32,000 nt of DNA from an uncultured Chloroflexia bacterium (GTDB lineage: Bacteria; Chloroflexota; Anaerolineae; Anaerolineales; Anaerolineaceae). The stretch lies in contig OY969938.1 of the NCBI GenBank assembly GCA_963704755.1, forward strand, positions 1,740,001 through 1,772,000, read 5' to 3'. The stretch's first letter is position 1. Each line of letters opens with the position of its first letter. This document shows positions 1 to 21,419 of the stretch, piece after piece. A program made the position numbers and the translations under genes. Below the pieces are notes generated by a model. That model worked only from the letters and a program-made list of their open reading frames with translations. It was not told where the DNA came from and did not search any database.

Positions 1-557
1 ACGAAGTTGGTGCAATCCGAACCACCAAAGCTGCCATAATCGGGATTGATTTGAGAGGCGTAATCTTTGGCATATTTTGCAGCCGCTTGCCGATCATATG
101 TGACATATTTCGTCTTATAACCCGTTGGATCGACAAAGATGATCGGGTTAGCACTCGCGTATAACCATTGATTGAAAGTGATTGGGGTAAAATCGTCACC
201 CGCCCACGCATCCTTCCCGACAAACCTGCCCTCCACCGGGCTATAATACCTCGCCCGCAGATACACCAACCCTGTTTGCAGATCATACATCTCGCCGGTG
301 AAGGCATAATCGCTCACGGCATCGCCATCACTATACAATATCTCACCATAAGGGGTATAGCTTTGCGTCAGGGTAACTGCCCCGGCGTCATCTACTATCT
401 TTCGTACAGATCCCAAGGCGTCTGGAAGGAAATAACCCGCCTGGGTGTCGGATATCTGGGCAATGCGGCTAACTCCATAAAGGTAGGTATTCGTACTGTT
501 TTGCATCGAACCAGGATTGGCCCTACACACAAATTCAATAAGAAAGGGTGGTGCCAT
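1..557 (-). CDS. Orphan/truncated Rhs (YD-repeat) core C-terminus fused to a putative cell-wall amidase-type toxin domain; 3' end runs off the left edge (module 9)
   Basis: Absent from the ORF track because it is open at the window edge. My minus-strand translation starts at ATG 557..555, with a TAA just upstream. It reads MAPPFLIEFVCRANPGSMQNSTNTYLYGVSRIAQISDTQAGYFLPDALGSVRKIVDDAGAVTLTQSYTPYGEILYSDGDAVSDYAFTGEMYDLQTGLVYLRARYYSPVEGRFVGKDAWAGDDFTPITFNQWLYASANPIIFVDPTGY, then KTKYVTYDRQAAAKYAKDYASQINPDYGSFGGSDCTNFV. The first part is the canonical RHS repeat-associated core ending (FTGE..D..TGL.YLRARYY.P..GRF...NP....DP.G). The second matches the Y.R..A..YA...GG.DCTNF signature of the putative amidase / NlpC-like Cys-peptidase family. 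The + ORF 168..680 is its antisense shadow. Confidence 0.7.
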   Translation of the reverse strand, partial: MAPPFLIEFVCRANPGSMQNSTNTYLYGVSRIAQISDTQAGYFLPDALGSVRKIVDDAGAVTLTQSYTPYGEILYSDGDAVSDYAFTGEMYDLQTGLVYLRARYYSPVEGRFVGKDAWAGDDFTPITFNQWLYASANPIIFVDPTGYKTKYVTYDRQAAAKYAKDYASQINPDYGSFGGSDCTNF

Positions 558-577
558 AGCTCGTTAAAGGCAGCCCC

Positions 578-1921
578 CTACTCTACAGGGGCCAACCAAA
601 CCGCAGTGCCATACAAATATCCAAAATCAAAAACCTGGCGCTTTTCAACGTCAACCAGGTATGCAAACTTCCTGGCCTGAGCCAATAAATTGTTGGCCAG
701 GAATTGTTTCCCGTCCGGTGACCAAACCACTCCACCGGGATTCCCATTAAATTCGTCATGGGTATACTCAACGATCGCGGGGTCCCATACTTCTTCCCGT
801 TTAAAATCATAGACCAATAACCGGACATCCGCTTCCTCTTGGACGTAAAAGGAAAGATACTGTCCATCCGGAGACCAGGCAATCCCGCTGGCCCACAGGA
901 ACTTTTCTGAAATCGCCGGATCAAGTAAAGACTTTTCATTCCCTTCCCGATCGACCACGGTCAATTCCAGGGTTTTATGTTCACCGGCATCTGGGACGAA
1001 AATGGCAAAGCGGCTCCCGTCCGGTGACCATGCGGGTTCAGAACTCCACGGCCGGGCTGTCAACGAAATCAGGTTTCGCCGCCAAATTTCTGCATTCGTT
1101 TTTAGGTCCCAAAGTGAGATTGCACAAGTCGGTTGGACTGGGTCGGCTTCATAATATATCACCATCGAAAGTGAAGGGTCGTATTTCGGGGCGACTGAAG
1201 CGCTATACCAGTTTGGAACAGGCCAAAGTCTCCCATCGATCAGGTTAGGAAAAGTCGGCGTGATCAGTTGCGACTGCTGAGTAACCAGGTTATATAAAAT
1301 GAGCCTGCCCAAAGGGTATGGGTTTCCAACCGGGTATAGAAAAACCTGGGTATTCGAAGGCCAGTAGGCTATACCACTTGCTTGCAGCTTATCTAGATCC
1401 ACCGACTGATAGGAATCTCCATCGGTAAGGATCATGGAGGTTTTTACCGCTGTTTTGCTGAGCTCTTCCCGGATAAATGCAGCATGACGTTGATCCGGCG
1501 CCATCATCTGATTGCTATTATTATCTGCGAAAATGCAACAATCTTGTATCGAAAGGAACACTTCTGGAGATGCCATATCGCGTTGATATTTATCTACCAC
1601 TGCATGGAAACCAACCCCCTTCTGAACCGGATTGAACAAAATCGTGCCATCTGACAGGCTTTCTTTGTCCATAGCCGGGGGATTAACCTGAGGGTATTCG
1701 GATGCCGTCATCATTGAAGTAGGTGTTAAACTGGCAAACGGGGAAGGAGACGGCGTCGATCGCATGGGTATCGTTTCGGCCGTTGCCGGCCCTGGCGGTG
1801 TAACCGTCAGAGTCGAAATGCCAGTTGCCGTCATTTCTGGAGATGGATTGTTACAGCCGGCCAGGCAAAGAACAATCACGAGAACGCCAAATATTTTCAT
1901 TGTTTTTGATGAGAAGTTCAT
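578..1921 (-). CDS. Lipoprotein with PD40/TolB-like beta-propeller repeats (family-1 propeller); immunity candidate of module 8
   Basis: 447-aa ORF. Signal peptide MKIFGVLVIVLCLAGC carries a lipobox; an alternative start at 1900 is possible. Repeated WSPDG/AWSPDG blade motifs. The C-terminal architecture is shared with the ORFs at 2426..3742, 4193..5560 and 12483..13758. Confidence 0.75.
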   Translation of the reverse strand: MNFSSKTMKIFGVLVIVLCLAGCNNPSPEMTATGISTLTVTPPGPATAETIPMRSTPSPSPFASLTPTSMMTASEYPQVNPPAMDKESLSDGTILFNPVQKGVGFHAVVDKYQRDMASPEVFLSIQDCCIFADNNSNQMMAPDQRHAAFIREELSKTAVKTSMILTDGDSYQSVDLDKLQASGIAYWPSNTQVFLYPVGNPYPLGRLILYNLVTQQSQLITPTFPNLIDGRLWPVPNWYSASVAPKYDPSLSMVIYYEADPVQPTCAISLWDLKTNAEIWRRNLISLTARPWSSEPAWSPDGSRFAIFVPDAGEHKTLELTVVDREGNEKSLLDPAISEKFLWASGIAWSPDGQYLSFYVQEEADVRLLVYDFKREEVWDPAIVEYTHDEFNGNPGGVVWSPDGKQFLANNLLAQARKFAYLVDVEKRQVFDFGYLYGTAVWLAPVE

Positions 1922-1925
1922 TTTT

Positions 1926-2282
1926 CTACCATTGGCTTGCGAAATCCCGATAGCTCAGGCAATCGTTCGAAATGATTCGATCGGTTATTTCTTTAATCGA
2001 ATATCCTGGATCAGCTTGTGTTTTCCATACAATTTCTCCAAAGGTTTCTTCTTGATCATGAATATCGACAGGATGCTCAGGATCGAATAATTCGAGAACA
2101 ACATCTTTCTCTGTAGAATCGCCCAGGCAAATATTGGCCTGGGTGGTCGTTAAACTATCAATATTAGGGTAACCCAGGTAGGTTTTTCGATTCGAAACCC
2201 CCACGATGTCAGCCTCCAATGGGACCATTTTTCCATAGACCATTAGCGCCAATGGTGTCCGTTGATGCCTGGGCTCATTCAA
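1926..2282 (-). CDS. Hypothetical small protein (up to 118 aa), tightly coupled to the downstream propeller gene; lacks the conserved junction block
   Basis: The ORF ends 4 nt before the start of 578..1921. I recognise no motif. The listed start is TTG; in-frame ATGs at 2243 and 2228 are more compatible with the promoter-like element at 2282..2310. Confidence 0.4.
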   Translation of the reverse strand: MNEPRHQRTPLALMVYGKMVPLEADIVGVSNRKTYLGYPNIDSLTTTQANICLGDSTEKDVVLELFDPEHPVDIHDQEETFGEIVWKTQADPGYSIKEITDRIISNDCLSYRDFASQW

Positions 2283-2310
2283 TTATAAATTCGGACACTG
2301 TTTTCAGCAA
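2282..2310 (-). promoter_or_regulatory. Sigma70-like promoter candidate TTGCTG-17nt-TATAAT upstream of module 8
   Basis: The minus strand reads TTGCTG (2310..2305), a 17-nt spacer, then TATAAT (2287..2282), inside a 140-nt AT-rich gap. Such matches arise easily by chance in AT-rich DNA. Confidence 0.3.
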
Positions 2311-2425
2311 AATGAATTTTCTGCATTTTTGCTATATTACAGCAAAAACTTCATGTTTTTATAGAAAAGGTTTGTATTGGTCGATGTTTTTACCATACGC
2401 AAGAAATTTTCTCATGCCCACAAGC

Positions 2426-3742
2426 CTATTTCAACCAGCCCACAGGTTCGAATCCTTTTTTTACGATAGTTCCTTCCCCGGTTTGGATATCAAACACCAG
2501 TGTGGATGGATCATCATCTCCAGGTAGAATATAGGAAACAGCCAATTGATCGCTGGTTGGTGACCAGAAGGTCAAATAATCATAATTTTGGTTCCCGCTG
2601 TCGATGCAATAATCAGTAATGGATTGGGTTTGGGTATCCAATACGGCCAACTTCTGGTCGGTCCAGATGCGATGGGAGTCGTTGGTATACCAAAATGCCA
2701 GATAACGACCATCGGGAGACCAAACCAGTTTGGAGATCGAAACCGTCTCAAACGAGGAACTTAATTTGCTTGTGAGTAGGCTTTGACCATCTCGACCAAT
2801 GACGAAGATTTCGTACGCATAAGAGAGGTCGCTCGCCGGCACGAGTGGTGCAGTGTTGATGGCGACAGCAAATTTTTGGCTATCTGGTGACCAAGCCGGC
2901 CAATTGCCGTAAATATAAGTGCTTCGCAAGCTTGCCAGATCGGTGCCTTTCTCCATGTCTCGTAAAACCAGAACATGACCATTATCCTCATTGGAGGGAT
3001 ACACCATACGAGTCATCGTCGGATCATAGACATTTTAAAATGAACCAAAATATCCCCATTCAAGCAATGGTTCAAATACGAAGTTGTAGTCGGGAAGGTA
3101 AGGTTCTAGTAATTCTTGTCTTTGTGGCGATTCGAAAGGAGATACCAGCAATACCGAATTATCGTCGCGGTTGGGAGCGTTCATGAGGAATTGTTCATCG
3201 TTCAACCAGAAGTATTCGGATGGCTGTTCTAACGGTACCTGGGTAACCAAATTGGCCAACCGATCATAGATTTTTATGAAACCACTCGGACCTAAAGTAG
3301 AATAGATTCTTGTTGAAAAATAGCTACCCCCAGAAGAGGTATTTTCCGATAGAAAACGGTCTCCGCCAGGTGGTGAGATATATTGACCCTGGTTGGTTTC
3401 CAGGTCGAGGAACAAGATGTTTTTTAGGTTTTCCCGAACCAGATTTTCCATCACCAATATGCCTGGCAATTGGCCAGCAGGTTTGGGATTTATGGTGATG
3501 CACTGAATTTCTATCGTACCAGATTGTGCGGTTGGGGTCAGAGTAGGAGAGGATACAGGCACTTGTACTTGTGTTGCTGATGTTATTGCATTTGTAGGTA
3601 TAAGGCTTTCAGTGGTCGCGGTCCTTACAACTACGGAAGGTTTCACACTTTTGTACAAATTACACCCGGTAAGCACGACACACAAGGCTAACAGATTCAC
3701 AAAACCGAAGTAAACGAGCACAGAACGATCATTCCGGTTCAT
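2426..3742 (-). pseudogene. Family-1 PD40-like beta-propeller lipoprotein interrupted by a single in-frame TAA (module 7 immunity candidate)
   Basis: ORFs 3035..3742 and 2426..3016 are in the same frame, separated only by TAA 3035..3037 (...EWGYFGSF*NVYDPTMTRMVYPS...). The joined length of about 438 aa matches the paralogs. Signal peptide MNRNDRSVLVYFGFVNLLALCVVLTGC. WSPDS/WSPDG motifs. Ends ...PVGWLK like 4193..5560. Confidence 0.7.
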
Positions 3743-3765
3743 TGGCTTGATTTATTCCCAGGTAC

Positions 3766-4169
3766 GTCAAAACCAGTATCACTGTATCCCCCAACCAGGC
3801 TGCTGAAAAAACTTCACAGTAGCCGGTCACCAACAGAGCACCGGGGATACTGGTCCCTGGGTTTCTTTTATAAAAAGCATAATGAATATATTGGTTAAGA
3901 TTATATCCATTGATTTATGCTATTTTTCGCAATAAGGTGGCAAAGCTGAAGAAATGGCTGCTTGACTTTGGGTTCTCCCTTAAATAGTCATTGGGATTTC
4001 TGACGTCGTTGTTTGCGTTGACGTAGGTTCCACCTGGTCTTTTACCGCCCCCGAAGTAGTCTCCGGGGAAAGAGTAAACGCCGTCAAACTCATCCCAACC
4101 GCCGCCGCCATCACCAGTGCGATAATCAAACCATCCCACTTACCGCGTTTTTTCTTGCGGCCGAAGATC
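3766..4169 (-). pseudogene. Cassette stub (module 7): junction/signal-peptide block with lipobox Cys->Phe plus about 300 nt duplicated from the 14.1-14.5 kb cassette; no effector domain
   Basis: The signal-peptide frame reads IFGRKKKRGKWDGLIIALVMAAAVGMSLTAFTLSPETTSGAVKDQVEPTSTQTTTSEIPMTI*. The whole segment aligns by eye with 14062..14470. No ATG/GTG start lies in the selected frame. Confidence 0.6.
4078..4169 (-). repeat. Junction block copy 1 (FGRKKKRGK-WDGLIIALVMAAAVGMSLTAF)
   Basis: Hand alignment with the other six copies. GC-rich relative to its flanks. Confidence 0.85.
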
Positions 4170-4192
4170 GGCGTGATAACCGCATTTTGCGA

Positions 4193-5560
4193 TCATTTCA
4201 GCCAGCCTACCGGCCTCGCCTGATCTGCAATTTTCGTAATGGTATGGTTTTGAAGGTCCACCCAAAGAGTGCTGCTTTGCCAGTCTTTCCAATCCTCGAT
4301 TAGCAGAGATTTGCTATCCGGAGACCAGACGGGTCTGGTTGTATTTACTTGTCCCAATTGTGGGCCAAGATGGATATCATCTCCAAAACGAAATGGCCGC
4401 GAGTTTAGCTCCTGACAGAAGACATCCACTTTTTGGGTTTCCATATCTAATACTGCCAGTTTGCCTGTGTTCTTCGGAAGATTGGTCAAAAGCCAGAATG
4501 CAACGTAGCGGTTGTCAGGAGACCATACCGGTGAATCAATCAATAAATCCGGATAATCCTCCCGAAAGAAACTGACTTGCATCATCTCACCGGTTGAATT
4601 GATGAGATATAACTCATCGTGCCTTGTAAAAGGATCATTCTCCAAATCTGTAACCAGCAATAACTGGCTTCCGTCCGGTGACCATCTTACCCAATCAACA
4701 CGATTTATGGTTGAAAGTACCTTATTCTTTTTCACATTCCATAAGATTGAGGTATGCTTGTTTGAATCAAAATAATACGCATCATACAAAACCAATGAAG
4801 TATCAGGGCTATAGATGAGTGGAGACCCCCATGTCCAATAGATATCTCTATAAAAAATATTCGGAAAATTCGAGGACAGAATGTGTTGTTCATGATCAGA
4901 TAGGTTGATCGAAACCAGATCGTATACTGCTGTGCTTGTTGGATCCTGTAAATCTTCGCCATTTACGTACTGCCGGAAGAGAAGTTGTTCATTATTCAAC
5001 CAACCGAAAAAAGTCCAGCTTTCTGGAAATGAAAAGCGGTCGTATTCATGGCCATTGGAATCCACAATGTTTAGGTCTGCAGAAAAGTGTAAAGTTTTCC
5101 CTTCTGTTAATGCCAGTTTTTCCTTGTCCGGGGATTCGGCATAGATATAATATTCTGGTCCATCGGGCAAATCATAAAAAGAAACCTGGTTTAACTGTGG
5201 GTTCCAAAAAGTCAGTTTTGAGCCTGTATCCGGTTCCGGTATCCATAGCTCATCCCTTGTCAATTGATCGTCAGCGGCAAAGACAAGCGTTCCATCCAAA
5301 TTTGGTAATTCTTTAATCCCGACAATTTTCTCAGGGCAATAGGTATCGATCTCAAACTTATTGGCAGCAAAAGTAGGAGTCAAGTCTTTGATAGGTGTTG
5401 GTTGAAGTATCTCCGCTGTTTTTGTTGGTTCCACGGTTTGAGCACGGGTGCTTATTACAACCGGTACTTCCGTTCTCTGTGGTTGCTCTTTCGGAACTGC
5501 GGTACAACCCACCAGCAAAACCAGGAAAGATAACCCTAATGAGCTTCGAATACTTTTCAT
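4193..5560 (-). CDS. Family-1 PD40-like beta-propeller lipoprotein (module 6 immunity candidate)
   Basis: 476-aa ORF in the track. The probable start is MKSIRSSLGLSFLVLLVGC (ATG 5560), which carries a lipobox. Motifs RWSPDG, VWSPDN and VWSPDS. Ends ...RPVGWLK. Confidence 0.8.
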   Translation of the reverse strand: MKSIRSSLGLSFLVLLVGCTAVPKEQPQRTEVPVVISTRAQTVEPTKTAEILQPTPIKDLTPTFAANKFEIDTYCPEKIVGIKELPNLDGTLVFAADDQLTRDELWIPEPDTGSKLTFWNPQLNQVSFYDLPDGPEYYIYAESPDKEKLALTEGKTLHFSADLNIVDSNGHEYDRFSFPESWTFFGWLNNEQLLFRQYVNGEDLQDPTSTAVYDLVSINLSDHEQHILSSNFPNIFYRDIYWTWGSPLIYSPDTSLVLYDAYYFDSNKHTSILWNVKKNKVLSTINRVDWVRWSPDGSQLLLVTDLENDPFTRHDELYLINSTGEMMQVSFFREDYPDLLIDSPVWSPDNRYVAFWLLTNLPKNTGKLAVLDMETQKVDVFCQELNSRPFRFGDDIHLGPQLGQVNTTRPVWSPDSKSLLIEDWKDWQSSTLWVDLQNHTITKIADQARPVGWLK

Positions 5561-5626
5561 TGTTCGCCTTAATTTCAAGAACCGGTGTTTAGGACGATGG
5601 CCATTCACCACATAGTCTCCCATAAT

Positions 5627-5914
5627 TTATGTTGGTTTTAGTATCATTATACAAGTAGCTGTGGGTGCTTCTGTCGGGGACTCTGTAGCTGCAGGTAACG
5701 TAGATTCGATCTTCGCCGTTGCATTGATTTCATCGTTTGGCGCTGGTGTTGCGGTTATTGTTGCTGTTGCTGTAGGAGTTTCCACGGTCGTTGTCGTTGT
5801 GCCAGGCGTACACGCCGTCAAACTCATCCCGACTGCCGCCACCATCACCAGGGCGATAATCAAACCATCCCACTTGCCGTGCTTCCTCTTGCGGCCGAAG
5901 ATCAACACCAACAA
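5627..5914 (-). pseudogene. Cassette stub (module 6): junction block + Thr/Pro/Ala linker only, effector domain missing
   Basis: LVLIFGRKRKHGKWDGLIIALVMVAAVGMSLTACTPGTTTTTVETPTATATITATPAPNDEINATAKIESTLPAATESPTEAPTATCIMILKPT*, with the stop 3 nt before the next gene's longest ORF. The only possible start is TTG, with no RBS. Confidence 0.5.
5811..5912 (-). repeat. Junction block copy 2
   Basis: cacgccgtcaaactcatcccgactgccgccaccatcaccagggcgataatcaaaccatcccacttgcc... About 59% GC by hand count. Confidence 0.85.
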
Positions 5915-6046
5915 AGTGGATAAATCTTTGAGGCATGAGAGTTGAACTAGCCAGTTTAGGCATCGTGGGTGAGGAAACGTCTAATAATCTTCCTCGGGTT
6001 CAAGATTTCTGGATTCGCTTAGGAGCCTTTAGTTTTATTTTATCTA

Positions 6047-7297
6047 TCATCTAATAATTTGATATTTATAAATTTTATTGTATACGACCATCCAAAGATT
6101 GTGCTGGCTATCCTCTTTTACTGGACTATAGCCATTCGTTATCATACACCATTTACCTTTTTCATATCCCTCCCGAATATCTAGACTTATTACACCACCC
6201 GTGGTGCTAAACCAAACTAAGCCATTTGAGCTTTCAAATATTGCCATTGTTTCAACCCAACCGTATCCTGGTTCGGGCGACTCGGCGTATCGGATAAACT
6301 CGGGCGGTGGAATAAGTTTATAAAATACTAAGTGTTCAGTATCGGAAAAGTCTACCCATCCTTCATGATCCAACCAGAAACGTTGCGACCAATCGAAATA
6401 TTTTGTTAATGGCTGGCGTAACAAATTCGAGAGGTCAATAGAGGGGATATCGGGTTCATTATTCGTTATACTATCAAATAATTTTGTCGTTTGATCATCT
6501 ATAAAATATTGAATTATTTTTCCATTCACTTGATCCTCACTCCACAGGCTTGATCCATCAGGAGCAATATTCAGAAGAAGAAATTCGCCTTGAAGTTGTA
6601 GAGGTTGGCGTTCAACTTCTAATGTCTCTGGATCGAAGCTATAAAGCGTTGACACATTTAAATCAGCATCTTTTACGAACATCCAGAATAACCCTTTGTT
6701 ATCTTCTACGACATCCGAACGAATCTCTCTGGGTGATTGTAAAACTCCCTGGTTATCCAAGATGAAATTAAATCTATCAATGGAAGCATTGTATTGACTA
6801 AGTAAAGGTATACCTTCTTGGTGCGATTGAAATACGTAATTTTCCGCCCACAATATTCCGTTTTTACTAAAGAATAATTTGTGTATCGGCAAAACGAAGT
6901 CATTTTTATCCAGTGTATAAATTTCCTTTTCGTTTTTATCCAAAGAATAAAGAACCAGTTGATTTTGCCCACCATCTCCATATGAAATCCAAATTTGATC
7001 GCTGTCATTTATTGCAAAATCCATCAGATAGGCATCATCTGGAATGGATCCAACTAAATTCCATTGAATAGGCGGAATTTCTTCAATTGTTCGCTGTTGT
7101 ACATCTCCCCCCATCGGAATGACTCCAAGGGAATTAATTGGTTGAATGCACTCGTCTTTTGTTACAAAATGGGTAGTCGCGTCCATCTCTCTGGATCGAT
7201 TTCTGGTTTCTGAAATTATCCCACTACATGCGAAAAGCAAGAAAACAAAAAATATGGGGATTCCATGTCTAATTAGTTTTCTGTCCATTAATGACAT
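6047..7297 (-). CDS. Beta-propeller lipoprotein of a different type (two-component-regulator-propeller-like G.LW repeats); module 5 immunity candidate
   Basis: The track ORF runs 6047..7315 with a TTG start. The ATG at 7297 gives MSLMDRKLIRHGIPIFFVFLLFACSG, which has a lipobox. Repeated QIWISYG, GILWAEN, GLFWMF, SLWSED, GLVWFST and NLWMVV motifs. Confidence 0.7.
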   Translation of the reverse strand: MSLMDRKLIRHGIPIFFVFLLFACSGIISETRNRSREMDATTHFVTKDECIQPINSLGVIPMGGDVQQRTIEEIPPIQWNLVGSIPDDAYLMDFAINDSDQIWISYGDGGQNQLVLYSLDKNEKEIYTLDKNDFVLPIHKLFFSKNGILWAENYVFQSHQEGIPLLSQYNASIDRFNFILDNQGVLQSPREIRSDVVEDNKGLFWMFVKDADLNVSTLYSFDPETLEVERQPLQLQGEFLLLNIAPDGSSLWSEDQVNGKIIQYFIDDQTTKLFDSITNNEPDIPSIDLSNLLRQPLTKYFDWSQRFWLDHEGWVDFSDTEHLVFYKLIPPPEFIRYAESPEPGYGWVETMAIFESSNGLVWFSTTGGVISLDIREGYEKGKWCMITNGYSPVKEDSQHNLWMVVYNKIYKYQIIR

Positions 7298-7302
7298 CCG
7301 GT

Positions 7303-8161
7303 TTATTCTGTACAAGACCAGTTCATTGATTCCAGCACGTCCTGAAATACGTTATCGTTATTAGCCAGATCTATATGCTTAATATCTTTATATATTGGAT
7401 GATTTGCTTGCTCTAGATCCAAAATGGCCCTATCACCATATATAGCTCCTTTTATATTTATAAATATTGGATTTCTATTATTGTCTAGATCATTTGGGGT
7501 ATCGGCTAGAAACAGCGGGGTTTTTGAAGCAATATTGTCTGCTAATGTATCCATATCATTAATATTCGGATAATCAGGATATGCTGATAATGTTGGATCC
7601 AATAATACAATTCAATTGATCAAAGTAGTACCTATGATTGCAGAGGCAGTCAAAACAGCGACATCTGCTCCTCCACTATGACCAATAAAAATGAAATTTG
7701 CCTCTGAATTCTCGTTTTTTATTTGCCCAATTTCTTGTTCAGCCTCAGATGCACAATTTGTTTTTGGTGAACATGAATCGTAATTAATGGATTGAATCTC
7801 ATAATTATTGTCAGTGGCCCATTTATAATATGGCGAAAGCGATAGTCCCACACCGCAGGTTAACCCTTTTCCACAAAACAGAAAAACATAAGTGAAATCG
7901 AGAAGAAATTCACAAGGCTCTGGAGTTTCTACGGGAGATAATGTAAACGACATTGTCTGCTCACCTTCAATCGTAATGGCCGTTACATCAAGTTCATAAT
8001 TTTTGGTTTGGGGAATTGCTATCCATGTTGCAGTTACTGTTCCTTCACTATTATTGGCAGTACCACTGCTGCTTCCACACGCCGTCAAACTCATCCCGAC
8101 TGCCGCTACCATCACCAGGGCGATAATCAAACCATCCCACTTGCCGTGCTTTTTCTGACAT
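7303..8161 (-). pseudogene. Cassette (module 5): junction signal peptide + alpha/beta-hydrolase (lipase/esterase-like, GHSGG) domain, split by an in-frame TGA; ATG one nt out of frame
   Basis: ORFs 7612..8130 and 7303..7602 share one frame across TGA 7612..7614 (...IIGTTLIN*IVLLDPTLSAYP...). The nucleophile elbow FIFIGHSGGADV lies before the stop; candidate Asp (VLLDP) and His (IKHID) lie after it. ATG 8161..8159 sits just upstream of the block in the wrong frame (see findings). Confidence 0.65.
8088..8157 (-). repeat. Junction block copy 3 (QKKHGKWDGLIIALVMVAAVGMSLTAC)
   Basis: Hand alignment. This is the shortest copy; homology starts at the basic cluster. Confidence 0.85.
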
Positions 8162-8225
8162 TGTTATGATCAGATTTGCAACTATTGCTTGAAGCCAATA
8201 CATTTAATTGATTGATTGCTCTCAA

Positions 8226-8254
8226 ATTTAAACAAATCGTTAAATACATTGCAA
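8226..8254 (-). promoter_or_regulatory. Sigma70-like promoter candidate TTGCAA-17nt-TTAAAT upstream of module 5
   Basis: The minus strand reads taagaaTTGCAAtgtatttaacgatttgtTTAAATttgag, directly after the stop of 8258..9325. AT-rich context, so a chance match is plausible. Confidence 0.25.
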
Positions 8255-8257
8255 TTC

Positions 8258-9325
8258 TTAAGGGGCTAATGTCCAATCCGGTGAATCATTAAAACCTGGA
8301 AGATCAGTTAACTGGGTTATATTCGACCCATCTGGTTTCATTACATAGAGATTGTAATTCCCACTCAGGGTTGAAGAAAAAACAATATAATCGCCTCGCG
8401 GAGACCAAGAGGGATCAATATGGTTAATCAACGGAGTTGTTTCAGATCGAGGGGTAATTCTTAATATACAATCCTTGTTTGTGCCATCAGCGTTCATAAC
8501 GCTAATTCCCAAACAAGACCCTTGCAAAGAATTAAACGCAATTTGATTACTATCAGGCGACCAGCGAGGCGTTTTATCCATAGTGAACTGACTATTATTT
8601 AGCCCGGTTAATTGCCTTAGGATCGTGCCACTAATATTCATTAAATAGATACTTTCTGGTGAATATCTACTATTAATATTCTTTCTCAGAATTGCTGATA
8701 TTGCAATCACATCTCCATTTGGAGACCAGGATGGTTGACCTTTCCAATCGCTATTATTTGTTATTTGTTGTTGCTGTGAACCGTCATTGTTAATTATATA
8801 GTATTCGCTGGCAGAAGTATCTGGGTTTGAAATGTAAATGATTTTTTTTCCATCTGGTGACCAGGTGGGATATCCCGCACCAGTTGGAGTTGTATCTTGT
8901 GTTAGCTGGCGTTGATCACTGCCATCCGCATTCATAACAAAAATTTGAGGAAGCCCTCCAGTGCTTCCAGTAAAGGCAATTAGTTTTCCATCTGGTGACC
9001 AGACTGGGGCGTATCCAGAAACCAAATTGGGAGTTAGGTTTTTCAACCCAGTTCCATCTGCATTGATTACATACACATTAAAAGAAGCATCAAATACGAT
9101 TTTCCCTTCTAGCGAAGATAAATCGAGTCCCCCTTGAGTTCCTTTCTGAACTGGCATAAAGGTTGGAAGTGAAGTTTGTACAAATGTAGATGTAGTAGTT
9201 AAGGTAGCGGTCAAAGTGGAGTTATTTGCTTCTGGGCCATTCTCAAGGCTTGCCACACACCCCATGAACAATAAACCCACAAAAAACAATAGCATGATAT
9301 CGTATTTGTGTTTTAGGTTTCGCAT
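8258..9325 (-). CDS. Canonical TolB-like PD40 beta-propeller lipoprotein (module 4 immunity candidate)
   Basis: 355 aa. Signal peptide MRNLKHKYDIMLLFFVGLLFMGC. Regular PD40 blades: VWSPDGKLIAFTG, TWSPDGKKIIYIS, SWSPNGDVIAIS, RWSPDSNQIAFNS, SWSPRGDYIVFSS, plus VINADGTG / VMNADGSD / IINNDGSQ / VMNADGTN / VMKPDGSN turns. AGGTG RBS 5 nt upstream. Confidence 0.85.
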   Translation of the reverse strand: MRNLKHKYDIMLLFFVGLLFMGCVASLENGPEANNSTLTATLTTTSTFVQTSLPTFMPVQKGTQGGLDLSSLEGKIVFDASFNVYVINADGTGLKNLTPNLVSGYAPVWSPDGKLIAFTGSTGGLPQIFVMNADGSDQRQLTQDTTPTGAGYPTWSPDGKKIIYISNPDTSASEYYIINNDGSQQQQITNNSDWKGQPSWSPNGDVIAISAILRKNINSRYSPESIYLMNISGTILRQLTGLNNSQFTMDKTPRWSPDSNQIAFNSLQGSCLGISVMNADGTNKDCILRITPRSETTPLINHIDPSWSPRGDYIVFSSTLSGNYNLYVMKPDGSNITQLTDLPGFNDSPDWTLAP

Positions 9326-9332
9326 GACACAC

Positions 9333-10172
9333 CTATTGAATGATTTTGCTCACCCTGGAAATAAAGTGGGTATTTTCCCCATATGCGTTGTCAAAATCGG
9401 ATTTTTTCATTGCACCTACAAAGTTGTCCAATTGTCCTAATCCATTTTGGTTGCCTACTTTTAGGTCAGAACCTGTATCCGCTACAGTAAAAACTTTTCC
9501 AGGATAAGCATCGATCATAACTTTATCGCCACACGCTAAGTCAGGGTTATTAGTGGCTACCGTTTTCCCTTCTTCGATTGGATATGAATATTTGCAAGAA
9601 CCTCCTTTTTTATAAATAAACACGAATTTTCCATTCTCTTTATCACTCAAGCCATCATCAATTGAGATGTAATGGTTATCCGCAGTGAGACCTGTACCCT
9701 GGACAAGGACACTCCAATGTTGATCCGTGGCATCGTCGTCCTCATAAATAAAATCAACATTATGAGTTTGAGTTTCGATTTTGTTTCCAACTTTCACCTG
9801 AATATCTATCGAACGGTCAGCCCAAGATGAACGAACACTATCATATTTATAATAATCATCACTCTCCATTGGTATAGTATAGTGAGTTATTAGGAAATCG
9901 TAATTAAATGGAATGCTTACTTGGGTTGCCGTCGCGGTGCAATAAGTGGGAGACGATGTTACTGTTTCATCAGTTGAGGTAACCGTGGTAGAAATTGTTA
10001 CTGCTTCAGTTGGAGTTCTGAGTCGGCATCGATGTAGGCTCTATAACAATTTCATCCGTTCCTGTAGAAGTCGTCACCGTTTTACTACACGCCGTCAAAC
10101 TCATCCCGACTGCCGCCACCATGACCAGGGCAATAAGCAACCCGTCCCACTTGGCACGTTTCTTCTTGCGTC
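9333..10172 (-). pseudogene. Cassette (module 4): junction signal peptide + Thr-rich linker + 3D (MltA/YuiC-like double-psi barrel) domain, one frameshift in the linker
   Basis: The signal-peptide frame reads RFFRRKKKRAKWDGLLIALVMVAAVGMSLTACSKTVTTSTGTDEIVIEPTSMPTQNSN* with its stop at 10007..10009. The body frame opens after TAG 10041..10043 and reads TPTEAVTISTTVTSTDETVTSSPTYCTATATQ...MESDDYYKYD... The body ends with ACGDKVMIDAYPGKVFTVADTGSDL...LDNFVG, the 3D-domain Asp pattern. No start codon precedes the basic region. Confidence 0.65.
10088..10172 (-). repeat. Junction block copy 4
   Basis: Hand alignment. Confidence 0.85.
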
Positions 10173-10258
10173 TAAAGAATCTATCTAAAATTTGCCCGAA
10201 AAAGCTTGGGAGAATAATTCGCCCATTACCATAACAGCCATGGGACGAAAATCAATAA

Positions 10259-11290
10259 TTAATCCATTGAATTCCACCATACTGCATCGCCAATATTTAT
10301 ACTTTCTGATGTGCGGATTATTTGGGTCAATCCTGTTCCGTCAGAATTGATTGCATAAATTTTGTAGTCACCATCTAGGTTGGAATTAAGTAGGATATGT
10401 TTACCATCAGACGACCATGTGATTCCTGAAAAGTAGATAAGGGCATTGGATGATTGTTTCAGCAAACAATTTTGCTCAGTCAGATCGAAACTATCGATTT
10501 CGATCCCAACGCATTGAGAAGTTCTTCGATCAGGTGAATAGGCAACCCACTTCCCATCTGGAGACCAAGCTACTGGCCCAGTTGTTACAAGCTCAGGATA
10601 TTCCTTTTGGACGATACCATTCTCATCTACCACATAATTAACGAATGAAAATCTAGTATTAAACTCCGAAATCGCAATCAGCCCATCAGCACGGTAATAG
10701 CCCGTCAAAGGAATATCGTCAGGTTTTTTCTCCACAACAAATCGGTGTCTATCTGTTCCATCTGATTTCATAATATAGATTTGAGGCACTGATTTGCCGT
10801 TAATATTTACAAACTCATCATCAAATGAACCGAACATAATAGTTTTTCCATCCGGAGACCAGGAAGGTTTAAAATCACTTTTATCCCCAGATGTTAATCG
10901 GGTAAAGCCAGAGCCATCGGGTTTAATAATGTATATCCGATATATATCACCTTCCCACGCTGAAAAGGCAATAGATTTTCCATCAGAGGCCCAGGAAAGA
11001 TCGCCAATATACTTAAGACTCGGAGGAGTAACATCAACCTGATTACTGCCATCCGCATTCATAACTTGAATATGATAGTCAGGCATAACACCGGTTATAA
11101 AGGCAATTTTTCCGGTAAGAAATGCCAATGGCGAAGTAGCTGTTGCCAAACCAGATTCTGTTTCTGTTAATGAATGAGTGGGTTGTTGAGTAGGCATAGA
11201 TTCAAAAACAGAGCACCTAGAAAGATTGGTTATGGCAAGGAAGATAATATAAAAGGCCTTTATTATTACGATAACAAAATTCTTTCTCAT
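10259..11290 (-). CDS. Canonical TolB-like PD40 beta-propeller protein with N-terminal signal/anchor (module 3 immunity candidate)
   Basis: 343 aa. Motifs VMNADGSN, SWASDGKSIAFSA, IIKPDGSG, SWSPDGKTIMFGS, IMKSDGTD, AWSPDGKWVAYSP, TWSSDGKHILLNS, AINSDGTG. Its start overlaps the upstream stop as ATGA (11287..11290). Confidence 0.85.
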   Translation of the reverse strand: MRKNFVIVIIKAFYIIFLAITNLSRCSVFESMPTQQPTHSLTETESGLATATSPLAFLTGKIAFITGVMPDYHIQVMNADGSNQVDVTPPSLKYIGDLSWASDGKSIAFSAWEGDIYRIYIIKPDGSGFTRLTSGDKSDFKPSWSPDGKTIMFGSFDDEFVNINGKSVPQIYIMKSDGTDRHRFVVEKKPDDIPLTGYYRADGLIAISEFNTRFSFVNYVVDENGIVQKEYPELVTTGPVAWSPDGKWVAYSPDRRTSQCVGIEIDSFDLTEQNCLLKQSSNALIYFSGITWSSDGKHILLNSNLDGDYKIYAINSDGTGLTQIIRTSESINIGDAVWWNSMD

Positions 11291-12338
11291 GGTTGCACTC
11301 GGGCTGCCTTGAAACGTTTCCCATCATATTGTGTAAATGAGGGATTATGATAATAATTATCGTAGGTCTGTGCACCCACATAAATATCGAAGTGATCTGG
11401 GCCACCATCGGGAACCGTAAAGGTTCCCGAATCACTTACCGTAAAAACTGTGTTCTCGAATCCCGGAATGTCTAGATAATATTTATCACCACATCTATGA
11501 CCGTCCTCCAAATTCAATTTATCGCTGGCAACGGCAATACTTGCGTTTTCTGTCAATGAAATACCGCACGCGCCATGAATTTCGTTTGTAAAGTAATACA
11601 CAGCGCTGGGCTGCCAGTTGTTAACTGGATCGGGGAGGTGATTCTTATCAACGTCTGCTTGAACATATTTCAAACCTCCACTCATTTGCAATGATTGAGA
11701 TTCGGTTAACTCACCTGACCCTTGAAGGGATACACGCCAATTTCCACAGTTACCCTCACATGCATTTCCAACGTAGAAGGCATATTTAGGAACTTTATCG
11801 TAATAAATATCTGCTTTGCTTGAGAAGGGTGGTGAATAAAATGGCACATATTTTTGAAGATTTTTATCTTCGGAAGAAAAAAAAGGATCGTTTTCTGTCA
11901 CTGTAGCATAATGAGTGATTAATACTGTATCTGCGAGCCAATCCCTCAGAGCTGCTGTCCCAGTGCATAGAGTAGGTGTAACCGAAGGAGTCGGCGTTGG
12001 AGTTTGAGTTTTCTGTGTGATTGTTGCCGAATAATTAAAAGTCTGTGTTGCCGTTGATGGAGGCATTACCTGTCCTTCTATTGTTGCCGTGGGCGTCTCC
12101 GCCGAGAAAGAACATGCTGTCAAGGTAACACCGAATGCCGCCACCATGACCAACGCAATGAGCAGCCCATCCCACTTGCCACGCTTTTTCTTGCGCCCGA
12201 AGACCAGCGCCAGCAGGGCCAACGGCGCCACCAATGAGGCAGACGGGTCCCAGGGAACATATGGGTTGGTCTGGTTGGTTTTGGCGTCGCGGGTGAGGAA
12301 GCGCCCGGTAGATGGGTCATAATACTGGCCGTTGCCAA
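11287..12338 (-). CDS. Only uninterrupted cassette (module 3): Rhs-core remnant + hydrophobic/KKKRGK/lipoprotein-signal-peptide junction + Thr/Pro linker + 3D (MltA-like) domain
   Basis: The stop-to-stop frame is open from 12338. It reads VGNGQYYDPSTGRFLTRDAKTNQTNPYVPWDPSASLVAPLALLALVFGRKKKRGKWDGLLIALVMVAAFGVTLTACSFSAETPTATIEGQV...TPTPTPSVTPTLCTG...SIAVASDKLNLEDGHRCGDKYYLDIPGFENTVFTVSDSG...HFDIYVG. There is no ATG; the first alternative start is TTG 12234, so independent translation is doubtful. Confidence 0.7.
12112..12338 (-). repeat. Junction block copy 5, extended with Rhs-core remnant, core and signal peptide in phase
   Basis: Hand alignment. This is the most diverged copy, and most of its differences are synonymous in the signal-peptide frame. 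Confidence 0.8.
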
Positions 12339-12482
12339 CTTAACAGAGGCAAGTTATTAGTCCCATAATGCCACTCAATTAACCAGAGCAAAATTGAGCC
12401 CTACAAAATACTAACATAATTGCAATTAAGAACAAATAGCGGAATGGGAAAAAGAAATTATTGTCATTAACTTTGGCTTCAA

Positions 12483-13758
12483 TTAATTTGGTTTTACAAT
12501 CCATCCAATGGCATTAGAATCAGTGGCAAGATTATATAACTTTCGGGTTTGAATATCGACCAGGAGTAACTCACCAAAACCATTAACATCTGTATTGGAT
12601 ATTGCCAAAAAATGGCTGTCGGGTGACCAAACTGGTGGTACATTCTCATTGTTTGCTGAAGGCAGGGCGTTGATACAAAAACCTTGGGGAACCTCTGAAT
12701 GTAAATCCAGGATTATGTATTTTGAATCGGTTTCCCCGTTCCAATCATACTCGATTTGGAAGGCCAGGTATTTTCCATCCCAAGACCGGCTGGCTTTTGA
12801 AAAAACTGGGGGGCTTTTGAGAAAACTGTTGAAATTTGTAATTCGCTTGATATCCCCATTTCTGGTGATTTGATACCATTCTATCCCGTGATCTGGCCAA
12901 ACATCCATGATCAAAAAGTCGCTTCCATCACTTGACCAAAGTGGATTGTTTGTCCAACTTTCATAAAAATAATCCAGTTTTGCCACAACGGAGTTATTTT
13001 CAATATTCCATAATGCCAAATAAATCATGTCATCCGATTCTTGGGGATAAACCAACCGGGTAAGCGTAGGATCGGGCAAAACATCCCCATGTCCAAAAAA
13101 ATTTGGGGATGCTACGCCGCCCGATTTAAAGGTTTTATAATCCGGTAAATCCTCCAATCGGAATACATGTTCCTTTTCTGTGAATGGATTCCAGATAACT
13201 GTTGTAAAAAAACCTTCTCCATTTATTTGGTGGGTGATAAGTAATGAATCCTTGGAAAACCAGCCTTCTAAAAAGTGATAATCTTCTTTTCTTACTTTCT
13301 GACCTTCCGAACTACCCACTAAAAAACTAGAAACAGGTTCTACAGCAGAGAGAGTCTGGTCATTATTTTGATAGGCGACCCATTTCCCGTCCGGCGAAAT
13401 AAAATAATTCCATGGAAAATTCTCAAGAGAAATGTTTAGATCAACCTTTTTATTGGTATCGAAACTATACAAAGCTGGGATCCCTTCATGCACGACAAAC
13501 AGATTCCAAGGAAGATCGTCGCCGTCTAGAAACGAAGAAGATGTTTCCAAACAACCTGAGAATAACAAATCCTGCAAACTTTGTACTTTTGGTTGTGTCG
13601 TTATTTTTGTAGGAAGCAAAATAGGGGTAGTATTTTCTCCTCCGCTAGTCGCTGTGGGTTGATCGGAAATGCTAGAAGAATTTAAAACTGTGGTCACTGC
13701 AACCGATCAACAGTATAGTAACGAAAAAGTATCCGAGAAAAAATTTCCATTTTGGCAT
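12483..13758 (-). pseudogene. Family-1 PD40-like beta-propeller lipoprotein with a frameshift just after the lipobox (module 2 immunity candidate)
   Basis: ATG 13758 gives MPKWKFFLGYFFVTILLIGCSDHSFKFF*. The 404-aa body ORF (12483..13697) is in another frame that is closed upstream by TGA 13707..13709, so the shift lies within 13672..13707. The body has ISPDGKWVAY, LWSSDGSDF, SWDGKYLAF and VWSPDSHFLAIS motifs and ends ...AIGWIVKPN. Confidence 0.65.
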
Positions 13759-13787
13759 TTCTTGCCTTTCATTTCTCTTTATGGTTT

Positions 13788-14573
13788 TTATTCTGACCAT
13801 CGAGCCGGGTTATCGCAAAGTGCGGAATGAGTTATACCTCCTAATGGATTCGAGTTATTGTAGAAATTAAGTTGACAGAATGTGAAGGCATAGTAATTCT
13901 CTATATTAGCCCCAATCTGATTGATTTTTCGGCCAAATTTTTCCACTGTAGAAGATTTAGATATTACATTACTATAAAAAGTCGGATTAAATCCAGACTT
14001 GCTGTTTCCCCATTCTATTAGGGGATCATCTATCGCTGATCCTTCTTTCCAATGATCCATCAAAACCAGTGTCACTGTATCCCCCAATCAGCCTGCTGAA
14101 AAAACTTCACAGTAGCCGGTTACCAACAAAGCACCGGGGATACTGGTCCCTGGGTTTCTTTTGTAAAAAGCATAATGAATATATTGGTTAAGATTATATC
14201 CATTGATTTATGCTATTTTTCGCAACAAGGTGGCAAAACTGAAGAAATGGCTGCTTGACTTTGGGTTCTCCCTTAAATAGTCATCGAGAATTCTGACGTC
14301 GTTGTTGGCGTTGACGTAGGTTCCACCTGTCCTTCTACCGATGCCGATGGAGTCTCCGTAGAAAAAGTACACGCCGTCAAACTCATCCCGACTGCCGCCA
14401 CCATCACCAGGGCGATGATCAAACCATCCCACTTGCCGGTCTTCCCCTTGTGCATCAGCAGGGCTAATGGCGCCACCAGCGAGGCAGATGGGTCCTTGCG
14501 AAGCACCCTGTGGGCAGGGGACGTAGGGATTGGTCTGGTTCGCCTTGGCCTCGCGGGTCAGAAAGCGCCCGGT
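13788..14573 (-). pseudogene. Cassette (module 2): Rhs-core remnant + junction signal peptide + linker + unrecognised body; several lesions
   Basis: The remnant reads TGRFLTREAKANQTNPYVP. A 19-nt length difference relative to copy 5 puts it out of phase with MLRKDPSASLVAPLALLMHKGKTGKWDGLIIALVMVAAVGMSLTACTFSTETPSASVEGQVEPTSTPTTTSEFSMTI* (stop at 14273). The downstream frame is open to 13788 except for TAA 14208..14210 and TGA 14088..14090. I do not recognise the body domain (...GALLVTGYCEVFSAG*LGDTVTLVLMDHWKEGSAIDDPLIEWGN...) and its true frame is uncertain. Confidence 0.5.
14369..14573 (-). repeat. Junction block copy 6, extended with Rhs-core remnant (out of phase)
   Basis: 14487..14573 is identical by eye to 16709..16795 (87 nt). 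Confidence 0.85.
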
Positions 14574-14627
14574 GAAAACAAATCTTTAATATTAAAGAAT
14601 TAAAAGCACAGTCTTATCCTATTGCAT

Positions 14628-15658
14628 CTATTCATAAGGCCACAAATCTTTAGGGACCTGAATGCAATCTGGATAGTCTGAACTGGTAAAAGTGTTATAA
14701 AACTGATCAATAGACATAATTTGATCGATGGATCGATAGAAGTCCTTGAGGCGGCTTTCGCTCATCCATTTCCAATATTCTTGAGGAATATCTGCAACAA
14801 CATCAGCCAAACTTTTCGAACTCGTTCGGATTCCAGGAAATAATGGTAAGTTCATTAACCTGGCTCAAGCAACCAGTGAAATAATCACCTTCGATATTCT
14901 TAGGTAATAAATAATCAATCAAAAAACCTTGGCTCGGATAAAACAGCAGAACACTGAAAGGGATCCAGGACGATTGACGTGTAGGTACATCGTCTTCAGG
15001 GTCCGGGCCGAAATAAATATTTGTAGGTTTTCCATAGGCATTAAAAATTTGGGGTAACAAGTAATTGGCGTAATGAATTAGGAATGGCGATGTTTGATTC
15101 TTAAAAAATTCAGAAGATTTTTGGGTTTCAAAAACAGCAATATCTAAAAACAAATATTCTATTTCATTCCTTCCTCTATAGCGAAATGAAATATCCGTTT
15201 CCCAGTTGCCCTCCCAATCCATTAAATCTAGAGTTGAATCAAGCTCGGAAGATGCGCTATTTATATAATAATCACCCCAGGCATCAATATTCCCTGGTTT
15301 TCTGATAAATGCCAAAAAATCTTCCGGCGTTTGGGTTACAGGATTTATTCCCCAAATACAAGGCAAACTACAATCACCATTATTCTCGGAAATACCATAA
15401 AGAAAAGTCTTGAAATCAGAAGAGGTCATGGTCGGCGTAAATGTTTCGGTAAAGGAAGGCGTAATTGGGAAGGTGCCTTCTAGAGGTGGACTATTGATAT
15501 CCGCTTGAGTCGGTTTAATAAGAATTCGTAGGCGTATAAGTCACGACCGGAGACCAGGTTGAAGTTTCATTATAGGTGCCCACGCATCCGACCAACAAGA
15601 CCAGGAACCATAACCCGATCAATGGAAAATATATCTTTCTCAGTTGGATTTTATTCAT
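14628..15658 (-). pseudogene. Non-propeller lipoprotein with two frameshifts (module 1 immunity candidate)
   Basis: ATG 15658 gives MNKIQLRKIYFPLIGLWFLVLLVGCVGTYNETSTWSPVVTYTPTNSY* with its stop at 15515..15517. The 208-aa ORF 14803..15429 continues in another frame, open from about 15545 (IKPTQADINSPPLEGTFPITPSFTETFTPTMTSSDFK...). The 75-aa ORF 14628..14855 continues in a third frame. Confidence 0.55.
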
Positions 15659-15676
15659 AACGATTTTCCCAAGAAA

Positions 15677-16808: not shown

Positions 16809-16831
16809 TTATTATCCGCAAAATCTTCATT

Positions 16832-17059
16832 TCACACCGTGTGATACACATTTTTATTCCAATCCGACCAATCTTCGGGGCCATGATACATATATGGAAT
16901 GCCTTTGCTTATTTGCTCTAAGCTTGTTCTTTCAAAAACCCCACCTTTTTTAGGGTGAGTACCTGTCACCCAATTCCCTTGAGTATCTGTAATGGCAGCA
17001 TTTTCGGGGTCGTAATAGGACCTTTTTTTCGGAGGTGGGGTGGGTTGTCGGACATTCAC
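16832..17059 (-). CDS. Hypothetical 75-aa ORF at the island edge, in frame (across one TGA) with the first Rhs remnant; possibly a decayed Rhs fragment
   Basis: MNVRQPTPPPKKRSYYDPENAAITDTQGNWVTG...NKNVYHTV*NEDFADNKIYPSTGRFLTRE, with the TGA at 16832..16834. SYYDPEN weakly resembles the RYYDPE.GRF core motif. The start is GTG with no spaced RBS, and the frame opens inside the terminator hairpin. Confidence 0.3.
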   Translation of the reverse strand: MNVRQPTPPPKKRSYYDPENAAITDTQGNWVTGTHPKKGGVFERTSLEQISKGIPYMYHGPEDWSDWNKNVYHTV

Positions 17060-17068
17060 TCCATCGAT

Positions 17069-17110
17069 TAAAAAGGGAAGAACCCCTCACATTCGGGGTT
17101 CTTCCCTTTT
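17069..17110 (-). terminator. Rho-independent (bidirectional) terminator after livM; boundary between core DNA and the island
   Basis: aaaaAAGGGAAGAACCCCtcacattcGGGGTTCTTCCCTTttt. A 14-bp perfect stem (17072..17085 / 17094..17107) with an 8-nt loop, flanked by an A-run and a T-run, 22 nt downstream of the livM stop. Confidence 0.85.
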
Positions 17111-17131
17111 TAGGCAGAGCAGGTACAAGTC

Positions 17132-18181: not shown

Positions 18182-18183
18182 GA

Positions 18184-19731: not shown

Positions 19732-19739
19732 TTCTAATC

Positions 19740-20444: not shown

Positions 20445-20499
20445 GTGTACCCCGTTGCATGAATGGGTGTTGACTGCTTGAAACGACGGATCAGGGGAT

Positions 20500-21270: not shown

Positions 21271-21337
21271 CCGGCCTTCCAATGTCTGAAAGTTCCTGCA
21301 AAATCTATCTGGCTCTTGTGTTTCTGACGGGTTGTTC

Positions 21338-21394: not shown

Positions 21395-21419
21395 ACTTTC
21401 CCATTTAACGTTATTTTGG

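Follow-up and report, generated by a model that had tools for sequence, protein, structure and literature searches.

What are large beta-propeller proteins doing directly behind toxin cassettes in an Anaerolineae-type bacterium? The question is raised by region 1-17060 (minus strand) of the window, i.e. the whole 32,000-nucleotide (nt) stretch of contig OY969938.1 that was analyzed. The region consists of C-terminal cassettes of RHS polymorphic toxins in an orphan array, and seven of the eight partner genes that lie downstream of a cassette encode stand-alone beta-propellers of 343–455 amino acids (aa), in three groups. A first-pass annotation of this DNA had proposed that the propellers are cognate inhibitors and that their type tracks the type of the adjacent payload. 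That idea is retained here as the central one, although it is now carried mainly by other genomes, and two of the four lines of evidence originally offered for it proved uninformative. The propellers are probably lipoproteins that confer cognate immunity at the outer face of the membrane, and we infer that they inhibit the payloads. Below, the propellers are designated P1–P7 from low to high coordinates, and the cassette that lies upstream of each partner is numbered accordingly, C1–C8. The partner of C8, which is not a propeller, is called N8; C9 is the cassette cut by the left window edge, and L001–L014 are external comparison loci or contigs. Every gene under discussion is on the minus strand; coordinates are collected in Table 1.

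The nature of the cassettes was established from a conserved 120-nt block. It occurs in seven copies (66–100% identity) and opens each block-bearing module; in three modules, additional conserved sequence was found upstream of it. Its translation reads ...YYDPSTGRFLTRDAKTNQTNPYVPWDPSAS / LVAPLALLALVFG / RKKKRGK / WDGLLIALVMVAAFGVTLTAC, which comprises, in order, an RHS core end, a hydrophobic/transmembrane segment, a basic cluster, and a lipoprotein-type signal peptide with a lipobox Cys. Downstream of the block are a Thr/Pro-rich linker and then a variable payload. The C6 block scored 15 bits against TIGR03696 (RHS-associated core; cut-off 32.5), and homologous cassettes with the same junction scored 33.7–34.2 bits, i.e. 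above the cut-off. In all, 148 homologs were found in the database; those with a named organism came from Anaerolineae or related metagenome-assembled genomes, with the exception of one Methanosarcinaceae record. In the majority of the 148, the same junction is preceded by TEN_YD-shell or RHS_repeat domains; in some, it is followed by lysozyme, polysaccharide deacetylase or amidase domains (PF00959, PF01522, PF12671). Because homologs carry RHS domains upstream of the same junction, several of them above the TIGR03696 cut-off, the cassettes were assigned as orphan C-terminal ends of RHS polymorphic toxins. Payloads are swappable at this junction; in the window, only those of C5 and C6 are related to each other. 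In at least 104 of 113 homologs that carry the block, the transmembrane segment, basic cluster, and lipobox Cys are all kept in this arrangement, and the median length beyond the Cys is 269 residues. It is unusual for a lipobox to lie inside a protein, downstream of an RHS core, and this suggests that the payload is turned into a lipoprotein. A signal peptide was found on the first protein of the L001 locus. No matches were obtained when the block profile was compared with viral contigs, and a search of genome contigs with a narrower payload alignment returned two loci only.

The partners were then characterized. The first-pass count of seven propellers among eight partners was confirmed: open reading frames (ORFs) were present where it had placed them, and all seven were recognized as propellers by Pfam, by alignment, and by a model of P3. 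In all-against-all BLAST comparisons, P1, P2, P3, and P7 shared 22–28% identity (E 4e-6 to 2e-22) and are termed family 1; P5 and P6 were 28% identical (E 6e-28), and P4 stood alone. This clustering reproduced the three groups that had been proposed. The Pfam signal of P7 was almost nil, and this protein aligned end to end with family 1. The earlier description of a G.LW-repeat propeller behind the GHSGG hydrolase of C4 also held, as P4 matches Reg_prop and features six x-x-[LIVF]-W motifs spaced ca. 50 aa apart (found by regular expression). The AlphaFold model of P3 (pLDDT 82, pTM 0.82) has a disordered tether of ca. 50 residues and is all-beta from about residue 70. When this model was compared with the PDB in Foldseek, TolB propellers were the best matches (E 2e-12). 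About 30 orthologs of P3 were found, at roughly 37–50% identity.

Lipoboxes were sought as the sequence pattern [LVI][ASTVI][GAS]C at the end of an N-terminal signal peptide. Canonical examples were present in P1, P2, P3, and P7 (out of frame in P7), and near-canonical ones in P4 (LFAC) and P5 (FMGC). Lipobox signal peptides were thus found in nearly all of the window propellers, as well as in partners at seven other loci, and the window propellers are predicted to be bacterial lipoproteins on this basis. The first-pass annotation had named a peptidase identity as a finding that would count against immunity. Domain scans detected no peptidase catalytic domain or other enzymatic domain in any of the seven. 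Identity as S9 peptidases was rejected: only the N-terminal models DPPIV_N and Peptidase_S9_N matched, and the C-terminal alpha/beta-hydrolase domain was not found. Signal peptide, tether, and propeller together explain the whole length of the propeller proteins. Identity as TolB was likewise rejected, because TIGR02800 scored 169 bits for P5, 90 for P6, and at most 32 for the others against a cut-off of 343. The TolB N-terminal domain (PF04052) was not among the Pfam matches of the propellers, and no tol-pal genes were found nearby in the window.

The pairing of payload and propeller was examined across other genomes, and it is there that the evidence is strongest. Eight external MltA-like payloads were located, in L001, L003, L004, L005 (two), L006 (two), and L007 (distant). 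All eight are followed by a propeller gene with a lipobox-type start, and seven of these propellers match the PD40 pair of the window; the remaining one, in L007, showed only faint Pfam matches. The pairing extends to finer divisions. C6-like payloads (46–62% identity) are followed by P6-like propellers (39–51%) in L001, L003, L005, and L006, and C5-like payloads (38–40%) by P5-like propellers (35–47%) in L005 and L006. In all six clear cases, some of them paralogous pairs in a single genome, the propeller sub-subtype could be predicted from that of the payload. Paralogs within one genome grouped by type, not by genome. The payload and propeller similarity matrices were correlated (Mantel r 0.85–0.86; permutation p 4e-4 to 1e-3). 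Payloads of the alpha/beta-hydrolase type are followed by P4-like (G.LW) propellers in three of three instances; two such payloads, related to that of C4, lie in L002.

Family 1 was approached from the propeller side. In L008, a P3 ortholog lies directly after a full-length 3474-aa RHS protein in which block, lipobox, and payload are intact, and L009–L011 have the same arrangement. In another assembly (L012/L013), P3 orthologs follow a frameshifted relic of the L008-type payload. The P3 type thus pairs with one payload family in two independent contexts (L008/L011 and L012/L013). No remnants of this payload type were found in the window, from which the cognate payload of P3 is absent. L008 also carries a different payload followed by a different family-1 propeller. 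Family 1 is accordingly a collection of subfamilies with different partners rather than a single type matched to a single payload. For P2, the context of the nearest relative (L014) contained only an unidentifiable remnant upstream.

Other partner classes were encountered. In L001 (9034–9879 and 16126–17307) and L006 (91–1305), the partner slot behind other RHS ends is filled by propeller lipoproteins of the PQQ_2 type, one of which immediately follows an RHS gene of 2689 aa. At least four classes of propeller have thus been recruited to the partner position. In L002 (2328–12290), three cassettes share a payload family (motif ...PDYRG...GIAIQGNY...), and each is followed by a protein of 251–256 aa. 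These proteins have hydrophobic N-termini and no Pfam match, and they were not detectable as propellers; they constitute a non-propeller partner class with the same payload-partner fidelity. Orphan propellers also occur. L005 has four in a row (5918–10736; P6-like, P4-like, family-1-like, and PD40), separated by hardly any or no cassette sequence, and this stretch looks like an island of orphan immunity genes. Further orphans are found in L012, beside the decayed payload, and in the window itself (P1 and P3). In these comparisons, payload and partner evidently move and diverge together as a unit. Such co-inheritance is the downstream-gene covariation by which RHS toxin/immunity arrays are recognized.

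Within the window, the original claim that propeller type tracks cassette type fared less well: it stood across other genomes, but here the association was barely above chance. The sole replicated payload type is the MltA-like pair, and both of its members would take PD40 propellers by chance about 1 time in 21. Because this one replicated type consists of two adjacent modules, the covariation inside the window is thin; one old tandem duplication could also explain the pairing of C5/C6 with P5/P6. The remaining observations that had been offered as pairing evidence were set aside. Stub C3 and the blockless C1, both noted to precede family-1 members, have no payload to covary. The C2 stub and C7 were likewise noted to precede family-1 members, but the stub is a copy of part of module 7: ca. 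390 nt of the stub (3767–4160) and module 7 (14050–14450) are more than 90% identical, with internal stops in common. The homology stops at ca. 3767, which is 25 nt before the start of P2, and P2 and P7 are only 28% identical. On these alignments, a dead cassette was recently duplicated or recombined within the array, from module 7 to module 2, and the resulting stub came to lie before an unrelated family-1 gene.

The payloads that could be typed point to the cell envelope. For the C6 payload, the AlphaFold model (pLDDT 85, pTM 0.83) was compared with the PDB in Foldseek; the top 13 matches were MltA lytic transglycosylases (E 5e-5 to 2e-2), with probabilities of 0.92–1.00 (1.00 for 10 of the top 11) but TM-scores of only 0.39–0.49. 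A profile search of PDB sequences with the C6-payload family gave no match. The “3D” label given to the C5 and C6 payloads in the first pass was backed by these structural matches and not by Pfam, in which the 3D domain (PF06725) was matched by only one of ten members of the C6-payload family (E=0.16). D168, G170, and D183, in the motif D.G...HFDIYVG, are invariant in this family, and D183 is the putative counterpart of the catalytic Asp of MltA. The modeled fold thus suggests that the C6 payload is an MltA-like lytic transglycosylase. The C5 payload is a shorter homolog (26% identity, E 6e-6). The C4 payload features a G-H-S-G-G elbow and a weak Pfam match to Lipase_3, and is homologous to payloads in L002. 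Taken as an MltA-like transglycosylase and an alpha/beta-hydrolase/lipase, the identifiable payloads would attack the envelope from outside.

A mechanism consistent with these features can be outlined. The RHS protein would be exported by Sec; export by a Sec signal peptide is listed as one route for RHS-repeat toxins in the survey of polymorphic toxins (Zhang et al. 2012, PMC3482391). Its transmembrane segment and lipobox would leave the payload tethered outside the membrane, and the propeller lipoprotein, on its own flexible tether, would be held on the same face of the cytoplasmic membrane. Because both carry export and lipobox signals, payload and propeller are expected to be together on the outer face; long flexible tethers are found on both. 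The propeller would then bind the payload one-to-one and block its active-site cleft, in the manner of Tsi1, X-Tfi, and PliI. Tsi1 and PliI-Ah each place a loop in the active site, as X-Tfi is predicted to do (PMC3391265; PMC10933484). Specificity would reside in variable loops on the rigid propeller scaffold.

An obligate helper would show the same co-inheritance of payload and partner, and this is one of several points that weigh against an immunity function. The binding and inhibition of payload by propeller are argued from sequence and by analogy. No beta-propeller is found among the immunity proteins of the survey cited above, and the propellers, at 343–455 aa, are much larger than typical immunity proteins. 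The external comparison drew on a small sample, about 10 contigs, whose members were found by homology to genes of the window. For P1, P2, and P7, the payload type could not be assigned. P2 and P7 are themselves disrupted, as is the eighth partner, N8. A full-length RHS gene is not visible within the window, and for this reason the system may be inactive in this copy. Finally, the lipobox of P6 (LSRC) is atypical; those of its orthologs read LAGC, LSGC, LTGC or MTGC.

The main rival explanation has the propellers as payload-specific helpers (chaperone, activator or stabilizer) of the tethered enzyme, or as helper and inhibitor both. Tight coupling and covariation fit a dedicated helper equally well, and there is precedent: loss of PefE abolishes the activity of PefD, and a Tli immunity protein activates its lipase (bioRxiv 10.1101/2023.03.28.534661). 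A helper role is nevertheless considered unlikely, since intact propellers persist without a payload (P1, P3, the L005 run, and L012), where a pure helper would be useless. The greater decay of cassettes than of partners in the window argues weakly in the same direction. A role of the propellers in toxin delivery to neighboring cells is decidedly improbable, whether as receptors or as modules for targeting or adhesion (lectin-like, as in the particles of umbrella toxins). It is the C-terminal payload with which they covary, and not the constant part of the RHS protein that serves delivery. They are separate lipoproteins that show no obvious connection to the RHS shell, and orphan arrays are typical of immunity genes. 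The case for targeting draws on the predicted surface tethering of the propellers and on the umbrella toxins of Streptomyces, in which beta-propeller lectins reportedly specify targets. Least credible is a chance or hitch-hiking origin, in which ordinary envelope lipoproteins (TolB-like proteins or the N-terminal domains of peptidases) came to lie between the cassettes. In favor of this reading, PD40 propellers are common in Chloroflexota, with many PD40 proteins of 550–790 aa, some of which have peptidase or kinase domains. Against it, the window propellers lack peptidase domains and tol-pal neighbors and score far under the TolB cut-offs. A chance origin would also have to explain why propellers fill seven of the eight partner positions of the window and most of those sampled elsewhere, with subtype pairing conserved across genomes.

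The condition of the array bears on the immunity reading as well. Frameshifts or in-frame TAA or TGA stops were found in four cassettes (C8, C7, C5, and C4), in P2 and P7, and in N8. Five of eight partners are intact, compared to one of eight cassettes (one-sided Fisher p=0.059). Intact partners amid decaying cassettes fit, weakly, the keeping of antidotes against the toxins of neighbors. A long-read homopolymer artefact was rejected as the whole cause of the frameshifts: several disruptions are in-frame stops or substitutions, and the shift in P7 lies outside any homopolymer. The flanking housekeeping ORFs appear intact, as judged from the ORF list only.

Table 1. Features of the array in the window, in order of coordinate. 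Lipoprotein and payload assignments are predictions.
Feature	Coordinates	Strand	Description
C9	1..565	-	canonical RHS core end RARYYSPVEGRFVGKD...FVDPTGY fused straight to payload; cut by window edge
P1	578..1921	-	family-1 propeller, predicted lipoprotein, 447 aa; lipobox LAGC; intact; weak PD40, three WSPDG motifs
C1	1926..2282	-	small ORF without conserved block; possibly a 3' payload remnant
P2	2426..3742	-	family-1 propeller, predicted lipoprotein; lipobox LTGC; weak PD40; in-frame TAA at 3035-3037
C2	3766..4169	-	stub copied from module 7: block, linker, first part of dead payload; repeats D1, D2
P3	4193..5623	-	family-1 propeller, predicted lipoprotein; lipobox LVGC; likely start 5560; intact; weak PD40
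C3	5627..5914	-	stub: block, lipobox signal peptide, Thr/Pro linker, no payload; NF058595 16.7 bits, sub-threshold
P4	6047..7315	-	Reg_prop-type (G.LW repeat) propeller, predicted lipoprotein; LFAC; intact; Reg_prop 23 bits
C4	7303..8130	-	putative alpha/beta-hydrolase payload (GHSGG, Lipase_3-like); in-frame TGA at 7612-7614
P5	8258..9325	-	canonical PD40 propeller, predicted lipoprotein; FMGC; intact; PD40 104 bits
C5	9333..10172	-	short MltA-like (3D/DPBB) payload; frameshift in linker; conserved Asp/Gly motifs
P6	10259..11290	-	canonical PD40 propeller with signal peptide; LSRC; intact; PD40 65 bits
C6	11287..12338	-	sole intact cassette; RHS core end YYDPSTGRFLTRD...NPYVPWDPSAS, transmembrane segment, RKKKRGK, lipobox signal peptide (LTAC), Thr/Pro linker, MltA-like payload
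P7	12483..13758	-	family-1 propeller; body 13697-12483, signal peptide 13758-13699 (LIGC) out of frame with body
C7	13788..14573	-	cassette; payload type not identified; multiply disrupted
N8	14803..15658	-	non-propeller partner; body 14803-15429; signal peptide (ATG 15658, LVGC) upstream in other frame
C8	15677..16803	-	first cassette of array; block and HExxH payload; one frameshift, two in-frame stops
Block copies (repeat search)	4053-4172, 5787-5906, 8054-8173, 10064-10183	-	120-nt conserved block
Block copies, continued (repeat search)	12089-12208, 14346-14465, 16568-16687	-	120-nt conserved block

The modules run from ca. 17060 down to the left edge at a spacing of 1.7–2.3 kb. The array adjoins ABC-transporter genes (17132–19731), beginning directly downstream of the permease gene at 17132, and its GC content (37–49% over 1–17000) contrasts with the 52–60% of the neighboring ABC-transporter/housekeeping region (17000–32000). 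Partner genes start between -4 and +29 nt relative to the cassette stop: P1 begins 4 nt past the stop of the remnant ORF C1, and the ATG of P6 overlaps the stop of C6 (ATGA). No full-length YD-repeat (RHS shell) gene heading the array was found in the window; a 75-aa ORF at 16832–17059 has a YD-like remnant, “SYYDPENA”. Full-length RHS genes head the related arrays in L001, L006 (2689 aa), and L008 (3474 aa). In every respect that was tested, other than a full-length gene in view, the array conforms to an RHS polymorphic toxin array. A promoter and terminator scan of the array gave counts not above those of shuffled sequence, and a tRNA scan detected zero tRNA genes. Genes of mobile elements were noted at or within related arrays, i.e. 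a phage-type integrase in L008 (9913–10788) and DDE transposases in L006 (1551–2431); in L004, a predicted transposase ORF (6611–8227, read by eye) interrupts a PD40 partner.

The cassettes at the two ends of the array carry payloads of other kinds. The motif VIHELGHAF (HExxH) in the C8 payload (15677–16200) suggests a metallopeptidase; the body of its partner N8 (14803–15429) had no family match. C9 is a second kind of cassette, without transmembrane segment or lipobox, and the visible start of its payload (...GGSDCTNF) looks like that of an NlpC/P60-type amidase. C1 had no Pfam match and no similarity to the other payloads.

Should the propellers be true antidotes, the known folds of immunity proteins would be extended to full-size beta-propellers, a fold that the reference survey explicitly lists as missing. 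A little-studied phylum (Anaerolineae, Chloroflexota) would then have a large envelope-aimed family of RHS toxins in which both toxin and antidote are lipid-tethered. The matched payload-propeller pairs, with their graded divergence, would be a natural set in which to follow how a rigid repeat scaffold evolves specificity of inhibition, and might also yield specific protein inhibitors against lytic transglycosylases and lipases. A wider proposal is advanced only tentatively, and we lean against it at present: that complete propeller lipoproteins (PD40, Reg_prop, PQQ-like, and the new “GW[IL]-ending” family) are an unrecognized major immunity class for Chloroflexota-specific, Sec-exported RHS toxins, whose internal transmembrane-lipobox module lipid-anchors the payload outside. 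Anchoring would take place in the producer (via Lgt/Lsp) or in the recipient, and the system would then provide a lipoprotein-based route of toxin display or exchange between the cells of a filament. A literature search returned no relevant paper on the “lipo-invert” element, PD40 immunity proteins or Anaerolineae RHS toxins.

Parts of the system have known counterparts. The block resembles NF058595 (“lipo-invert tail”; invert_tail, a C-terminal anchoring domain) in its transmembrane segment, basic cluster, lipobox, and short tail. The existence of this NCBIfam model shows that curators have noticed a related tail. The block in the window scored 22 bits against it, and 11 proteins scored 17–30 bits (cut-off 37); furthermore, the block is internal and is followed by a payload. 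TolB comes closest to the propeller domain among solved structures and in sequence, but the window propellers are without the TolB N-terminal domain, are predicted to be tethered as lipoproteins, and lie inside a toxin array. In PefD-PefE of Proteus mirabilis, a predicted beta-propeller immunity gene likewise lies beside a polymorphic effector; there, however, PefE is also needed for effector activity, the system belongs to the PAAR/type VI secretion system (T6SS) class, and the two are not homologous as far as tested.

With the Rhs/YD-repeat loci of the survey (PMC3482391), the array shares a core end of the form YDPxTGRF...NPY..DPxG at a conserved junction, variable C-terminal payloads, a covarying gene immediately downstream, orphan cassette arrays, and decay. 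It differs from them in the transmembrane segment, basic cluster, and lipobox signal peptide placed between core and payload, in payloads that are predicted to act on the envelope and not in the cytoplasm, and in partners that are large beta-propeller lipoproteins; the survey includes only one lipoprotein immunity family, Imm65. The functional parallel is to Tse1-Tsi1, X-Tfe/X-Tfi (XAC2609/XAC2610), and PliI, in which extracytoplasmic propeller-like proteins inhibit peptidoglycan hydrolases. No homology to these inhibitors was detected: phmmer comparison of P6 with PDB sequences gave only TolB and other PD40 proteins, and neither Tsi1 nor X-Tfi was in the top 50 Foldseek matches of P3. Tsi1, X-Tfi, and PliI are small or partial propellers (three sheets in Tsi1) from proteobacterial T6SS, type IV secretion system or housekeeping contexts, whereas the window partners are complete PD40, Reg_prop, and family-1 propellers (with PQQ_2-type propellers among their relatives) that belong to putatively Sec-exported RHS systems of Chloroflexota.

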